Source of the DNA: Escherichia phage HX01
Sequence record: NC_018855.1
DNA length: 64,000 nucleotides
Strand: one strand, 5' to 3'
Shown here one piece after another: positions 35,150-40,080 of the stretch (the stretch's first letter is position 1; every line of letters starts with the position of its first letter). A model generated the notes under the pieces. It saw nothing but the letters and a program-made list of their open reading frames with translations. It ran no database searches and had not been told where the DNA came from. Both the position numbers and the translations under genes were made by a program.

Positions 35150-35746
35150 ATGCGAAACCAAAATAATGATATTGACTCAATGTTCGAAGAGTTCCGAAAT
35201 AAGGTAAATCCACCTACGTCTTTAGTTGATTCATTACGATATGTTGCAACTGGACGTAAATGGTATTGGTCGTCTTCTTATGAGACAACTGAATATGCAA
35301 ATAACCGAAAATCTTTATTAGCCCCAGGTATTATGATTCATGATATCGGAGCTATTGCTAAACTAGTTGCAGACCATGATATTAGATTCACTGATTTCGT
35401 TGCTCCTACGTGGTCTGTTTGTTGTTTAAACACTGAATGGGACTATATCAGTGAACGTTCAGATGATTACATAGGCTTTAGAGACAAGCTTTTAAGGTCT
35501 AACATGTTTTATATTGATACAGAAGTTCTGGTCAATAATAAAAAATACTACTTCACTTTAATCGTCGATTCTGAAACTATGTATGAAGGCAAGCCTTTGC
35601 TTAAAAGAGTTGATGCTTTAAGTGCTATTGATGCGCTTTATGAAACCATGGTTGTTAGTCCTAATTTCACTAACAATTTAATCCTTGAGCAATTTATTAT
35701 GGAATGTAGAGAATATGTCAAAGCCAACCCTATACATGCCAAGTAA
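35150..35746 (+). CDS. Hypothetical protein with C-terminal EQFIMECR motif
   Basis: 198 aa from ATG 35150 (RBS AAAGGAG). Confidence 0.55.
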   Translation: MRNQNNDIDSMFEEFRNKVNPPTSLVDSLRYVATGRKWYWSSSYETTEYANNRKSLLAPGIMIHDIGAIAKLVADHDIRFTDFVAPTWSVCCLNTEWDYISERSDDYIGFRDKLLRSNMFYIDTEVLVNNKKYYFTLIVDSETMYEGKPLLKRVDALSAIDALYETMVVSPNFTNNLILEQFIMECREYVKANPIHAK

Positions 35747-36110
35747 GCCCTGGGCGTATGAATACAAGCGTAAATTAATCCCAAATGAAGTACTATTTGG
35801 CCCTATTTTAGCTTTAGCATTTTTAATCTTTATGATTATAGGAGCTGTTTTAGATTCCAATAAAGTTATATCGTCTGATGCAGCGTTTTCATTAATGTTC
35901 GTCGCACCACTTATTGTACCGTTTTTATTAATGCCTATTAATTGGGCAGGATATTGGCACCAAGGCCGTCATCACAGAGCCCGATTAAGAGAATGGAAAG
36001 TTCAGTGCGCAAAAGCCCAAGCTCAGTATGATGAAGCTGTTAAAAAGTATGAATATGAAGAAGCTATGGAATTCGTTAAGGAAATAAGATGCAAAAACCT
36101 CAACTCTTAA
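35715..36110 (+). CDS. Small membrane protein, FVKEIRC family variant
   Basis: 131 aa, two hydrophobic helices, C-terminus ...MEFVKEIRCKNLNS. Confidence 0.5.
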   Translation: MSKPTLYMPSKPWAYEYKRKLIPNEVLFGPILALAFLIFMIIGAVLDSNKVISSDAAFSLMFVAPLIVPFLLMPINWAGYWHQGRHHRARLREWKVQCAKAQAQYDEAVKKYEYEEAMEFVKEIRCKNLNS

Positions 36111-36451
36111 CCGTATGGCCTTCTCTTGGTGAGAACATTCTAATTTTTATTATGAGTATTGGCATGGGATTTGCCTTTGGATTAGTTGGATTTCTTATTG
36201 ACGGCGTTGTGTTAGGATTTATAGGGAACACTGGTGGATTCACAGACCAATGGCAGGACTTACGGTATACCCAAGCCTTTGCATCCATCGCATCATTTTG
36301 TACTGTAGTCTATTTTTACTACGATTTTATAAACCATAACAAGAAAAATAAAAAGGTTTACGCTTCTCAAATGATTAGTTATAATGAACTCCTAGCTAGA
36401 CGTGAAAATGAAACAATAGAAAACTTTATTAAGGAATGTAGAAATGAGTAA
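36089..36451 (+). CDS. Small membrane protein, C-terminal ENFIKECR motif family
   Basis: 120 aa, hydrophobic N-terminal half, ends ...ENFIKECRNE. Confidence 0.55.
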   Translation: MQKPQLLTVWPSLGENILIFIMSIGMGFAFGLVGFLIDGVVLGFIGNTGGFTDQWQDLRYTQAFASIASFCTVVYFYYDFINHNKKNKKVYASQMISYNELLARRENETIENFIKECRNE

Positions 36452-36749
36452 GATTATTGAAATTAAAGTACCAGAGTTTAATGATGCCAAATCCGCTTCA
36501 GATGCAATTTATAAACTTCTGAATCAAGCTGAACGTATCGAAGAAGAAGCAACAAAGATCGCAGACCAATATGCCGTATCATTTTCTGTAGGTGATTATG
36601 GTAGCGGTCGTACTTATTATCCTAAGGGTGAAATCGTATCCCAGTGGATGAAAGATGAAATTGAAAATAATGGTGGCGATGTTAAGCGTGAAGGTAATGG
36701 TTACGTTATTACTGAAGGTGCTTGGGTTTCGTCTTCTGCGTTGTGCTAA
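36444..36749 (+). CDS. Small protein, tandem paralogue 1 (C-terminal GxWVSSSxxC)
   Basis: 101 aa ending EGAWVSSSALC. Confidence 0.55.
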   Translation: MSKIIEIKVPEFNDAKSASDAIYKLLNQAERIEEEATKIADQYAVSFSVGDYGSGRTYYPKGEIVSQWMKDEIENNGGDVKREGNGYVITEGAWVSSSALC

Positions 36750-36758
36750 GGAATCATT

Positions 36759-37031
36759 ATGTCTAAAGAACAAACCGAACTGGCTGAAGCTGTAGCAAAA
36801 ATCTATGCAGCTATTGAGGCTGCCAAAGAAATTGCTGATAAACAAAACACAACATTCGACTTGTATCCAGCTTATGGTATGGGTGGAACATATCATTCAC
36901 CCGGACAGCTTAAAGCCGATCTTGAACGTTGTACAAAAAACGGCTATGCTGAATGGGCTGACGTTTACCAATACGACTACAACCTGAGCCTCGAAACTGG
37001 TGGTTGGATCGCATCTTCTCACACTTGCTAA
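36759..37031 (+). CDS. Small protein, tandem paralogue 2
   Basis: 90 aa ending GGWIASSHTC; 9-nt spacer TAAGGAAxCAT to neighbour. Confidence 0.55.
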   Translation: MSKEQTELAEAVAKIYAAIEAAKEIADKQNTTFDLYPAYGMGGTYHSPGQLKADLERCTKNGYAEWADVYQYDYNLSLETGGWIASSHTC

Positions 37032-37040
37032 GGAAACCAT

Positions 37041-37238
37041 ATGTCTCGTGAATTAGATTGTGCTGTACGTACGGCAGTAGCTGCCCTGGAAAACCTGTTC
37101 CAAATTGCAACAGAAGAACGCGAAGAAGTTACATTGTGGATTGAAGATAACGCAGGTCTGAATCTCCAGAACGCGATCTCATTATCCCACAATAGTATCA
37201 CTGTTCAAGGCTGGGTATCATCTAGTTATTCTTGCTAA
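37041..37238 (+). CDS. Small protein, tandem paralogue 3
   Basis: 65 aa ending QGWVSSSYSC. Confidence 0.5.
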   Translation: MSRELDCAVRTAVAALENLFQIATEEREEVTLWIEDNAGLNLQNAISLSHNSITVQGWVSSSYSC

Positions 37239-37242
37239 AACA

Positions 37243-37280
37243 GTTTACAACAAGATAGGGCTATGTTATAGTAGTCCTAT
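37243..37280 (+). promoter_or_regulatory. T4-type early promoter embedded in stem-loop
   Basis: GTTTAC, 18-nt spacer, TATAGT; inverted repeat GATAGGGCTA/TAGTCCTATC. Confidence 0.55.
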
Positions 37281-37300
37281 CAAATTAAATGGAGTCCACA

Positions 37301-37540
37301 ATGATTTATTACGAAAGTATTGGAACCGAAGTGGTTGCTAAAACCATTACTCGTGAAAAGTTTGCAAAGATATTCGATATGCGTTATAAAAAATCTGAAC
37401 ACAAAGGCATCCGATTCGAAGATGCACACTGTACAATTTGCCCTTATAACGAAGACATAAATGGTACAATCGTTCCATTGGTAGAGGCTTCACACGATGA
37501 CCTCTGGGATGAATATGATATCGCATGTCGTGAAATTTAA
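37301..37540 (+). CDS. Hypothetical protein
   Basis: 79 aa from ATG 37301 (RBS AATGGAG). Confidence 0.5.
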   Translation: MIYYESIGTEVVAKTITREKFAKIFDMRYKKSEHKGIRFEDAHCTICPYNEDINGTIVPLVEASHDDLWDEYDIACREI

Positions 37541-37568
37541 GTTAATGAATTAATCCGAGGAAAATATT

Positions 37569-38525
37569 ATGATGTTAGTTATTGGTTCTCGTGCACTTCA
37601 CTATCACGGTCTTATTGATTCTAACGCTATCAAAAATAGTGACTGGGACTTTATTGCAGACCAAGGTTCTTGGAATGCATTCAAAAATCAAATGATGGGT
37701 GTATATGTTCACCAAGATAACCCTGATGTCCAAGTTTTCAAATGCTTCCATAATGGACGCGAAACTCATTTTGAAGCATATATTGTTCCGGCAATCACTA
37801 ATGTCCGTGAATTAGTAGGTGAACTCACTCCTGAAGATTTCACGTCTTCTTATGACCTTTTAAAATACGCCAAGAAAAATTTGACTAAAGACCGTTTGAA
37901 CGGGTTTTACTGGGCAACTCCTGAGATATGTCTTGCAATTAAGATGTCTCATCGTTTCAAGAAAAATAATCCATTCTTTTTAAAGACTATGAACCATATT
38001 CAGTATCTTCGTGGTAAAGGTGTTACACTGAACGATGAACTTACTGAAATTATGCTAAAACGCCAGAAAGAAACCTTGAACTATGCTCACCCAGTTCTTG
38101 ACACTTCTAAAAGTGCGTTCTTTAAAGATGACATCTATACATATGACCATGATACTATTCATGAAGCCATTGCACTAACAGACCGTCCAGCGTATACATT
38201 TTATATGAAAGACGGTTCTGAAGTCATGACATCACGCGAGAAGTTCGAATCATTACCAGAAATGGTCAAATTGGCCGGTGTATACGAAGAATCATGTGTA
38301 CTAGCATTAGAACGTTCTCAAATTCCTAATGACTTTAAAATTAACCCTGAAGCCAGTTTTATGATGGCATTAGAAAAAGTATGTACAAGCATCACCTCCG
38401 GTTGGTTCCGTGAGTATGCCTGGGAAAACTACAGCAAAGTAGTAAGTATGTACCAAAGCTTAGGACATGATGATTACGTCAAACGTTTCAAACAAAATTT
38501 CCATATGGTAAAACCTTTCAAATAA
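37569..38525 (+). CDS. Hypothetical 318-aa protein, possible nucleotidyltransferase-fold N-terminus
   Basis: N-terminal VIGSRA...x16...SDWDF resembles the G[GS]...DxD polymerase-beta-type motif; weak call. Confidence 0.6.
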   Translation: MMLVIGSRALHYHGLIDSNAIKNSDWDFIADQGSWNAFKNQMMGVYVHQDNPDVQVFKCFHNGRETHFEAYIVPAITNVRELVGELTPEDFTSSYDLLKYAKKNLTKDRLNGFYWATPEICLAIKMSHRFKKNNPFFLKTMNHIQYLRGKGVTLNDELTEIMLKRQKETLNYAHPVLDTSKSAFFKDDIYTYDHDTIHEAIALTDRPAYTFYMKDGSEVMTSREKFESLPEMVKLAGVYEESCVLALERSQIPNDFKINPEASFMMALEKVCTSITSGWFREYAWENYSKVVSMYQSLGHDDYVKRFKQNFHMVKPFK

Positions 38526-38595: not shown

Positions 38596-38901
38596 ATGAA
38601 ATTAACAGAAACCAACCGAATTGGTCTTTTAACAATATTTGCATCACCTTTTTACGCAGCCCTTTCTGTTGCAGTATTACAAAAGGCTTACGATATGGAT
38701 GGTGTTCCTGGTTTTGTATTCTTATCACCGTTTTTATTATTCGTCGGAGCATTGTTATTATATGCCACGACTAGTTTCGACCATAATGTCTGGGTCAATT
38801 ATAAATGTAAATTGTCTGAAGAAGAACACGCAGAAGCTCGTAAAAAAGCTATTGAATCTACCAATCTAGAAAATTTCATTAAAGAATGTCGAGGAAAATA
38901 A
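38596..38901 (+). CDS. Small membrane protein, C-terminal ENFIKECR motif family
   Basis: 101 aa, two hydrophobic helices, ends ...NLENFIKECRGK. Confidence 0.55.
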   Translation: MKLTETNRIGLLTIFASPFYAALSVAVLQKAYDMDGVPGFVFLSPFLLFVGALLLYATTSFDHNVWVNYKCKLSEEEHAEARKKAIESTNLENFIKECRGK

Positions 38902-38902
38902 T

Positions 38903-39589
38903 ATGAATAGTTCTAAAGTGTTTAATAGTCAAGCTCGTGCAGTAGGTGGTTTCGCTGGTAAAATTTCTAACGATAAAATCAAAAACGAACCTATGTTCTT
39001 CAACAGCTCGTTAGCCTTCGCTTTTGATAATGGTGGCCCTATTACTCGCAGCTTCATCATGAACCTACCAGATGATTGGAACACCGACCAGGTTGTATTT
39101 GATTCACGAGTCCACATGCTGATGCCTGGTTGGTATCCTGCTATTCCTGGATATCACCATGATGACGTACCACGCCCTGATATTCCAGTTGGTCAACACT
39201 TTATTACTGCAGGACAACCTGATTATGACAATCCTCGCTATTTGTCTGAACATATTCTTGGTCTTGTTAACGCTGATGTGTGTCCTACTCATTTTGCAAC
39301 AGGAACTGCAGAGTTCAGTCAGATTCCTGATGGCGAACTTATCTATCGTCAGTGGCACAAAGAAGTCCTCGAAAAAATTGAAAAAGGTGAACTAGAGAAA
39401 TGGGAAGCTCCAGATCGTACTCTTCTTCAGTTTGATTGGCAAACATGGCACACTGGTTCTCGTGCAATTAGTAACGGATGGCGTTGGTTCGGACGTGTAT
39501 CTCGTAATACAGACCGAGTTAAAAAGATTACCAATGAAATTCGTGTCAATGCTCAAGTTTATCTGGAATTCCCTATGGAAGGCTGGTAA
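38903..39589 (+). CDS. Hypothetical protein
   Basis: 228-aa ORF, no recognisable motif. Confidence 0.55.
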   Translation: MNSSKVFNSQARAVGGFAGKISNDKIKNEPMFFNSSLAFAFDNGGPITRSFIMNLPDDWNTDQVVFDSRVHMLMPGWYPAIPGYHHDDVPRPDIPVGQHFITAGQPDYDNPRYLSEHILGLVNADVCPTHFATGTAEFSQIPDGELIYRQWHKEVLEKIEKGELEKWEAPDRTLLQFDWQTWHTGSRAISNGWRWFGRVSRNTDRVKKITNEIRVNAQVYLEFPMEGW

Positions 39590-40080
39590 TGATTAACAAA
39601 ACATATTGGTCTAATATAGACGATAGCAATGAAGGTATTTCATACTATTCAGTAGATTGGACAGGATGTCCATCCTACTTAGTGAAAAATATTTGCCAAG
39701 AATTTAAAATCGACCAGCCAGCAGGTATTATCGTGAACAGATACATTAATGGATATCAACCTATCGATGAAGTAATACGAACAACTCAAGCTGAGCTTGA
39801 AAGGTTTTTCAATAAGTGCCAATGGATAACAGGATGGATTATATTTGTACCATCTATATGGTTTTTCAGTACTAAGGTGAGTTCTTTCGGTTTTGTTGAT
39901 ATTATTGCTATCTTATTAGCATCTAGTATCATAAGTGTTGTTGGTGGCATCATTGGCGGCGGTACCGCCGCCATCATTATTAATCTTGTTAAAAGTAGTT
40001 TACAAGAACATAAAGACAAGATAAAAGCCAAGAATAATGAAGTTGAACGTTTTATTACCGAATGCAGGAATTTGAGATGA
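39589..40080 (+). CDS. Membrane protein, C-terminal ERFITECR motif family
   Basis: 163 aa, hydrophobic central region with Gly-rich TM helix, ends ...VERFITECRNLR. Confidence 0.55.
   Translation: MINKTYWSNIDDSNEGISYYSVDWTGCPSYLVKNICQEFKIDQPAGIIVNRYINGYQPIDEVIRTTQAELERFFNKCQWITGWIIFVPSIWFFSTKVSSFGFVDIIAILLASSIISVVGGIIGGGTAAIIINLVKSSLQEHKDKIKAKNNEVERFITECRNLR

Follow-up and report, generated by a model that had tools for sequence, protein, structure and literature searches.

The DNA analyzed here, hereafter the window, is a stretch of 64,000 nucleotides (nt) from Escherichia phage HX01 (NC_018855.1), an RB69-type T4-like phage of the genus Mosigvirus. It harbors three consecutive open reading frames (ORF1, ORF2, and ORF3) on the plus strand that encode small proteins with a common C-terminal tail ending in cysteine, and their coordinates, lengths (101, 90, and 65 amino acids (aa)), and termini were found to be exactly those given in an initial annotation made from the sequence alone (Table 1). 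The array lies in a variable stretch bounded by the lysozyme gene e and the tRNA genes, with e.3 (36089-36451) on one side and the equivalents of RB69 ORF135c and ORF134c on the other. Region 36000-37600 shared 98.8% identity with Escherichia phage PHB12 and had matches in 238 phage records. The present study focused on this array and on the gene encoding a 318-aa DUF7277+DUF7275 protein, referred to below as the enzyme, which recurs beside such arrays in other phages.

Table 1. Genes and candidate regulatory elements of the Cys-tail array region (positions in the window)
Feature	Position	Strand	Description
Promoter-like site TTTACG-17-TATAAT	36357..36385	+	Within the 3' end of e.3, just 5' of ORF1; consensus scan 10/12
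ORF1 (RB69ORF139c/138c equivalent), 101 aa, A-type	36444..36749	+	MSK...GAWVSSSALC; helix, GDYGSGRTYYP loop
ORF2 (RB69ORF137c equivalent), 90 aa, B-type	36759..37031	+	MSK...GGWIASSHTC; helix, AYGMGGTY loop
ORF3 (RB69ORF136c equivalent), 65 aa, C-type minimal member	37041..37238	+	MSR...QGWVSSSYSC; helix, short strands
Hairpin	37254..37281	+	Directly 3' of ORF3; RNA fold -16.1 kcal/mol, z = -4.1; closes the three-gene unit
79-aa gene (PHROG 3723)	37301..37540	+	Between array and enzyme gene; T4-like loci only
318-aa DUF7277+DUF7275 protein	37569..38525	+	Conserved partner gene, two positions downstream of array
228-aa ORF (PHROG 1843, no Pfam match)	38903-39589		3' of the membrane ORF, downstream of the enzyme gene

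A profile of ORF1 and ORF2 relatives, scored against 1.84 billion representative proteins (E<=1e-3), recovered at least 262 clusters at 50% identity, nearly all of 70-140 aa. The family proteins are small and acidic (65-140 aa, median isoelectric point 4.5) and share one layout, in which a long, amphipathic N-terminal helix ending in ...AE-IADE...F-F is followed by an (A)YGMGGTY(Y)P or GDYGSGRTYYP loop, a variable acidic linker, and the near-invariant tail W-x-[S/A/P]-S-S-x(0-3)-Cys at the extreme C-terminus. Altogether, 134 of the 146 family representatives ended in Cys, and among these W(-7) was present in 133, [S/A/P](-5) in 131, S(-4) in 133, and S(-3) in 130, revealing that the conserved C-terminal Cys motif pointed out in the initial annotation is real and strongly selected. 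All three window ORFs carry the W-x-[S/A/P]-S-S-x-x-Cys terminus, and no other real ORF in the window ends in such a tail. The central [YWF]-G-x-G...T-Y loop was detected in 129/146 representatives and is represented by GDYGSGRTYYP in ORF1 and AYGMGGTYH in ORF2; ORF3 is devoid of the YG-G-TY loop, and its common features with the others are the tail, the helix, and the position in the array. The helical N-terminus that had been ascribed to all three proteins was borne out for ORF1, the one for which a model was reported, by a long helix at residues 15-43 in an AlphaFold2 model (predicted local distance difference test (pLDDT) 90.1).

Both TCN and AGY codons were used for the tail Ser across 52 distinct tails, indicating that selection acts at the protein level. 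An origin of the tail similarity in shared junction DNA read in frame was rejected on account of this mixed codon usage and of the last gene in each array, which keeps its tail with no gene following. Most members contained one or two Cys residues (a single one in 78/146), and 11 representatives had one or two extra internal W/F-[DEN]-[SN]-S-x-C units, pointing to a tail that behaves as a self-contained functional unit. Moreover, the spacing between S-S and the terminal Cys varied from 0 to 3 residues across paralogue types, so the tail does not look like a mere packing element but like a functional unit with some flexibility. It is plausible that the terminal Cys may serve as a modification or metal site, as initially suggested.

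For the classification of the three proteins, ORF1 and ORF2 matched PHROG 899 (E 1.3e-22 and 1.9e-18, respectively) as well as our own family hidden Markov model (3e-22 and 1.4e-20). ORF3 matched PHROG 4882 only (E 1.2e-36), with no match to PHROG 899, and was not recovered by the family model at E<=1e-3. No Pfam, PDB, or fold match was obtained for ORF1-3, and no paper on the RB69 ORF names, DUF7275/DUF7277, or the PHROG numbers was found in the searched library, where broader queries brought up nothing specific either. The families are thus catalogued (PHROG 899/4882, DUF7275/7277) yet undescribed, and the present analysis adds the tail motif, the formation of arrays, and the linkage to the enzyme, none of which these PHROG records contain.

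In annotated phages and in IMG/VR, where loci were found by a back-translated AYGMGGTY DNA pattern and the sample is accordingly biased to arrays containing the ORF2-like type, tail-bearing genes usually occurred as tandem sets of one to five diverged paralogues. These were named A (ORF1-like), B (ORF2-like), C (ORF3-like), D (...EEYIP...FWYSSSMxxC), and E, which carries two units (...DW-x-[NS]-S-x-C-[YF]-G-E... and a terminal ...W-x-x-S-S-C); PHROG 899 takes in the A, B, D, and E types. Homology to the core family was clear for the D type (97.4%, E 1e-11). The array order was A-B-C in Mosigvirus, A-B-C-D-E in JS98, A-B-E-D...C in Marfa-like and CIP9-like phages, A-E in Karamvirus AS6 and Aeromonas CC2, and B-E-A in phAPEC8 and phiWec181, and there were four to five members in FKP3 and phiPsa374, two in XbC2, and two to four in unclassified contigs. 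The D gene of JS98 is an unannotated 69-aa ORF (NC_010105 3290-3499, ...GFWFSSSMSC) between orf127 and orf126, and five consecutive tail-bearing genes are present in this phage once it is counted. In Stenotrophomonas phage BUCT608 (4207-4960), the tail genes are located downstream of the enzyme gene, not upstream, and encode proteins of 81 aa (...GWQASSQSC), 96 aa (...LWMPSSQEGC), and 67 aa (degenerate ...NWERSWC).

The tandem layout, the equal spacers, and the alike N- and C-termini had been taken as signs of a recent local triplication followed by fast arms-race divergence, a scenario that we now regard as scarcely credible. The proposed tandem array of three paralogous genes was itself supported. 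For ORF1 and ORF2, comparison of family profiles by hhalign (94.8%, E 5e-8) gave 59 aligned columns that covered the helix, the YG-G-TY loop, and the tail, so that the similarity of this pair is not confined to the tail. For ORF3, the link is weak outside the tail, with a weak full-length profile alignment to ORF2 (70%, E 4e-5) and alignments to ORF1 or to the 146-member family profile (82%) over the last 13-14 residues only. Pairwise protein identity among ORF1-3 was 28-30%, and the DNA repeats between copies were restricted to 25-48 nt of motif-coding sequence with 63-76% identity. Each copy also had its own orthologues (in 393, 280, and 250 phage records for ORF1, ORF2, and ORF3, respectively), which were 54-66% identical in Dhakavirus, Karamvirus, and Klebsiella T4-like phages but less so in those of Aeromonas, Serratia, and Yersinia, and related paralogue types were found in another subfamily, Stephanstirmvirinae. 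Nei-Gojobori ratios of nonsynonymous to synonymous substitution rates (dN/dS) were 0.04-0.55 in all informative comparisons (ORF1, 0.07-0.29; ORF2, 0.15-0.55), contrary to the arms-race proposal, and W58, S60-62, and C65 were invariant among ORF3 orthologues. Taken together, the profile alignment of ORF1 with ORF2, the low identity, the motif-limited DNA similarity, the separate orthologue sets across genera and subfamilies, and the dN/dS values below 1 establish, at the level of sequence comparison, that ORF1 and ORF2 are paralogues, that the duplication is ancient, and that all three genes are under purifying selection.

The spacers provided no further support for a fresh duplication. Both were indeed 9 nt long, but their sequences (GGAATCATT vs GGAAACCAT) were equal at only 6/9 bases and shared only TAA+GGAA, i.e., a stop codon followed by the Shine-Dalgarno core; TAAGGAANNNNNATG occurred four times in the window vs 0.27 expected. 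The 9-nt stop-to-ATG junction was the commonest array spacing across many unrelated phages (24 of ~75 junctions), including T4-like phages, Stephanstirmvirinae, and a jumbo Xanthomonas phage, which marks it as an ordinary compact junction of a tight operon and not as a duplication scar. Likewise, the source of the variation within Mosigvirus is allele or cassette replacement via recombination, not local duplication. In LF82-16, the C-terminal half of ORF2 is a Karamvirus-like allele with 77% identity to the window ORF2 (L060 416-688), and in LH01 there is a Dhakavirus-like A gene, with a D-type gene in place of ORF2 (L061 101-838).

These arrays were consistently associated with the enzyme gene. 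IMG/VR yielded 21 loci with family members, and all 17 that extended more than 500 bp beyond the array had a downstream gene for a DUF7275 homologue, in the same orientation and adjoining the array or nearly so; the remaining four end too early to judge. The enzyme gene was also found beside the array in 3/3 phages chosen via weak ORF1/ORF2 tblastn matches (phiWec181, FKP3, and the 368-kb XbC2). Conversely, when loci were selected by close homologues of the enzyme (E<=1e-54), 8/9 had clear Cys-tail genes adjoining, and the ninth, H101, had a degenerate tail only (...WYESRC). The pairing recurred in several T4-like subfamilies, Stephanstirmvirinae, Otagovirus, Menderavirus, and jumbo phages, and the surrounding genes differed by lineage (helicase/primase in Acinetobacter phage Kimel, Ser/Thr phosphatase and Sir2 in phAPEC8, and polynucleotide kinase in XbC2), so that the array and the enzyme gene move as a unit.

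Furthermore, the enzyme was found in 732 phage records, with per-host-genus counts similar to those of ORF1, whereas only six loci were detected among 185,579 representative bacterial and archaeal genomes. Four of these six were contigs of metagenome-assembled genomes (MAGs) with the same phage-like array, and a bacterial origin of the module was rejected on the grounds of this small number and of the mostly MAG-derived, phage-like loci. These distributions demonstrate, as far as gene content can, that the module is restricted to phages and that array and enzyme remain linked in phage lineages unrelated to one another. A total of 258 Escherichia phage records carry the enzyme, and T4-type coliphages are far more numerous than that, which suggests that T4 is without the module and that the module is dispensable in principle. 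Given its apparent absence from T4, the module lends itself to study as an accessory function of RB69-type phages.

Considering this linkage, the 318-aa protein was analyzed for possible function. It matched PF23942 (DUF7277, E 1e-27) and PF23940 (DUF7275, E 5e-79), and an alignment of 17 diverse homologues revealed the invariant residues G6, S7, D25, and D27, followed, within DUF7275, by K125, H128, H194, D195, H198, E240, E241, E248, and R249. Nucleotidyltransferases of the polymerase-beta type are characterized by the pattern hG[GS]-x(9-13)-Dh[DE]h, a third catalytic carboxylate on a subsequent strand, and an alpha-beta-alpha-beta-alpha-beta fold. In the enzyme family, the spacing from G-S to D-x-D was 10 in the shortest homologue and 17 in the window protein, and a conserved acidic position follows D-x-D within a hydrophobic stretch (FEAYI / VEAEV / IEFDT). 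As such, the N-terminus looks like it carries a polymerase-beta-type nucleotidyltransferase signature, a match by pattern only, and two GenBank records name the enzyme as a nucleotidyltransferase. The DUF7275 invariants form an H...HD...acidic pattern that is reminiscent of metal-dependent phosphohydrolases. No NCBIfam model scored above its cut-off (hisJ_fam, at E 0.002, was far below), and no PADLOC model was matched. The 'DefenseFinder protein' label that GenBank gives to an Acinetobacter phage homologue of the enzyme names no system.

On the basis of the shared tail and the recurrent gene pairing, we consider it reasonably probable that the small Cys-tail proteins are partners or substrates of the DUF7277+DUF7275 enzyme, which they would contact via the tail, and that together they constitute a host-directed module. 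The array is flanked by the promoter-like site and the hairpin, with early/middle-type promoter-like sequences, and would be expressed as a compact three-gene unit in the early or middle period. Its products would then act together with the enzyme encoded two positions downstream, so that one enzyme would serve several small partner or substrate proteins through their common Cys tail, for example by nucleotidylylating Ser or Cys in the tail or Tyr in the loop, and the variable parts of the paralogues may confer different host-directed specificities in host takeover or counter-defence. We hold the family, the tail, and the linkage with high confidence but the chemistry with low confidence; the nucleotidyltransferase activity of the enzyme, its action on or binding to the tails, and the biological role are inferred. 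A more specific form is a phage-specific module in which the enzyme, as a polymerase-beta-type nucleotidyltransferase with a His/Asp-rich second domain, would covalently modify the small effectors on the W-x-S-S-S-x-x-Cys tail and thereby activate several host-directed functions early in infection; this is conceivable but doubtful. Such modification might be nucleotidylylation of Ser or Cys, or activation of Ser followed by thioether formation, and the number of paralogues (1-5) would set the breadth of targets.

Several observations weigh against a partner or substrate role of the small proteins. The enzyme is assigned as a nucleotidyltransferase by a short motif; in Pfam searches at E<=10, all 17 homologues matched DUF7277 and DUF7275 only, with no cross-match to a nucleotidyltransferase family, the 318-aa protein had no PDB sequence match, and its single-sequence AlphaFold2 model was unusable (pLDDT 36). 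On the side of the small proteins, the similarity of ORF3 to ORF1 and ORF2 outside the tail is statistically weak, and it is chiefly the tail, the helix, and the array position that tie the C and E types to the core family. The ORF1 model places the tail within the folded domain (strand 93-96, helical turn 97-100), and its role could, according to this model, be structural rather than chemical. In the window, the hairpin, a promoter-like site, and the 79-aa gene separate the array from the enzyme gene, and the two need not be co-transcribed. Finally, six distant, shorter homologues of the enzyme (in KVP40, DSS3_VP1, Streptomyces and Gordonia phages, and two actinobacterial contigs) were without Cys-tail neighbors.

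Distant DUF7275 homologues without Cys-tail neighbors each adjoin another protein of ~100-130 aa (KVP40, L053 2360-2656; Wakanda, L051 3594-3893; ClubL, L052 3600-3890; DSS3_VP1, L050 4217-4612). A weak pattern is common to these neighbors (...G-Y-x-S-[YW]-x-G...E-V-x-P/G...T...Y/W; pairwise E 0.001-0.04), which hints that the DUF7275 enzyme family may generally be paired with a small protein partner.

Among the other explanations, a toxin-antitoxin-like system, in which the enzyme would be a growth-arresting nucleotidyltransferase of the AbiEii/MenT or MNT type and the small acidic proteins would inhibit or regulate it via the tail, appears unlikely. It would account for the nucleotidyltransferase-type motif and for the gene order, in which small acidic genes immediately precede a larger, co-oriented enzyme gene just as antitoxin genes usually precede those of their toxins, and phage nucleotidyltransferases can be toxic on over-expression, as reported in a preprint (10.64898/2026.09.15.751885) and for Gad2 of SPbetaL7. 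However, up to five different paralogues per enzyme would be unusual for an antitoxin, the BUCT608 array lies downstream of the enzyme, and no AbiEii, MenT, MNT, or HEPN match was obtained in Pfam, NCBIfam, or PADLOC. It is also quite unlikely that the small proteins are independent effectors that hit host targets alone, with the enzyme linked to them by co-inheritance or loose co-function and the Cys tail serving as a metal, Fe-S, or disulfide oligomerization site that joins single-Cys paralogues. The near-invariant terminal Cys, the many single-Cys members, the additional thiols brought by internal W-x-S-S-x-C repeats, the long N-terminal helix, which could drive oligomerization, the retention of several different paralogues together, and the separate promoter-like sites before the array and before the downstream genes in the window would all suit independent effectors, yet no known metal-binding motif was matched, and the adjacency to the enzyme across unrelated lineages with different flanks is hard to explain without a functional tie.

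A further alternative resembles the ribosomally synthesized and post-translationally modified peptides (RiPPs), whose lanthipeptide-type arrays comprise many precursors and one synthetase and, in class III, a Ser/Ser/Cys motif. Here the enzyme would activate a tail Ser (e.g., by adenylylation), and elimination followed by attack of the terminal Cys would close a thioether ring, with the array providing the precursors. The likeness lies in the grouping of several small genes with one enzyme gene, in a helical stretch at the N-terminus that could be a leader, and in a C-terminal Ser-Ser-(x)n-Cys unit that is repeated in some members. Nevertheless, this is very unlikely, as no lanthipeptide synthetase (LanB/LanC/LanM/LanKC/L-type enzyme), protease, or exporter was detected among eight neighboring proteins, and to our knowledge no polymerase-beta-type enzyme acts as a lanthipeptide dehydratase. 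In addition, the small proteins are predicted to be folded domains, a compact one that includes the tail in the case of ORF1, and their conserved part is the C-terminal unit, not a leader.

The proposed partnership of small Cys-tail proteins and enzyme was also compared with known two-component systems. The closest functional analogy is GlnD-PII, in which GlnD combines an N-terminal polymerase-beta-type nucleotidyltransferase with a His/Asp-rich domain, and its PII substrates are proteins of ~100 aa with an exposed Tyr-containing loop. The window system would resemble it in the putative nucleotidyltransferase-type N-terminus, the His/Asp-rich domain, and the small proteins with a loop Tyr. However, ORF1-3 have no sequence or fold similarity to PII, the window enzyme has no Pfam HD or GlnD match, PII is without a C-terminal Cys tail, and the window system is phage-only with multiplied partner genes. 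In MntA-HepT, a type VII toxin-antitoxin system of the MNT/HEPN kind, a minimal nucleotidyltransferase covalently poly-adenylylates its HepT partner on Tyr, and the small gene comes before the enzyme gene in the operon. The small-gene-first arrangement is common to this system, AbiEii, MenT, and the window, where the enzyme is a putative nucleotidyltransferase, whereas ORF1-3 lack the HEPN Rx4-6H motif, neither component had a Pfam, NCBIfam, or PADLOC match to MntA-HepT, AbiE, or MenT, and the window-type genes occur in lytic phage genomes, with up to five partner paralogues, and not in bacterial defence islands.

Gad2, a phage anti-Gabija protein of ~400 aa with a predicted nucleotidyltransferase domain, is almost phage-only and has no known mechanism (10.1101/2023.05.01.538930). 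The window enzyme is likewise a phage-encoded predicted nucleotidyltransferase with an almost phage-only distribution, but it has 318 aa, and no small partner genes are reported for Gad2. Gad2 was set apart by description and by model searches (NCBIfam, PADLOC), with the presence of a Gad2 model in NCBIfam not confirmed. The PHROG groups (899 for ORF1 and ORF2, 4882 for ORF3) are clustering labels without function, motif, or partner. Since the comparisons gave either no match or pattern-level likeness only, the system is filed under none of GlnD-PII, MntA-HepT, Gad2, or the RiPP clusters.

Most early genes of large lytic phages lack known function, and in the present case three hypothetical proteins become a defined system with a signature tail that ends in a free C-terminal cysteine, multi-paralogue arrays, and a fixed enzyme partnership, whose enzyme family occurs in >700 sequenced phages, among them several therapy phages (of Escherichia, Klebsiella, Acinetobacter, Enterobacter, and Pseudomonas). 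Modification of the tails by the enzyme, if it takes place, would represent a new kind of protein chemistry during infection by phages and probably a means of host takeover or counter-defence; otherwise, a fold without a solved relative and an unusually strict C-terminal motif would remain.

With respect to the elements around the array, a T4 middle-type promoter is annotated in the phage SA79RD record at the position of the upstream promoter-like site, which is a candidate promoter by consensus match only. The hairpin is annotated as a terminator in the same record, but no T-run follows it, so it is a putative terminator only, and an early-promoter-like site (37244-37272) overlaps it. The 79-aa PHROG 3723 gene is probably outside the module, as array and enzyme gene adjoin each other without it in phages such as phAPEC8, phiPsa374, and XbC2. 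The 228-aa ORF was kept in several T4-like loci and not elsewhere. In the RB69 record AY303349 (L063 101-407), ORF1 is split into ORF139c (71 aa) and ORF138c. The aligned stretch has 796 nt there and 795 nt in the window, which points to a 1-nt indel caused either by a genuine frameshift or by an error in the older sequencing.

Automatic annotations of the genes in window 35700-38525 are inconsistent and probably spurious. In public records, array members are labeled 'tail completion protein', 'CAZy families GH13 protein', or 'Ig-like domain-containing protein', the e.4 homologue 'sulfurtransferase', and the enzyme 'prohead assembly scaffold protein' or 'DefenseFinder protein'.

A second C-terminal motif, (E/Q)-x-F-I-x-E-C-R, was common to e.5, e.3, the 101-aa membrane ORF (38596-38901), and e.2, at window positions 35687-35746, 36392-36451, 38842-38901, and 40021-40080, all of which flank the array, and it was seen also in the JS98 and AS6 homologues. 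In all four genes, the underlying DNA (GAATGYMGR and a purine-rich run) lies 5-15 nt before the ATG of the following gene. The motif could represent a second family of C-terminal protein motifs or a conserved translation-initiation/coupling element read in frame. The 79-aa ORF (37301-37540) has a similar end, ...DIACREI.

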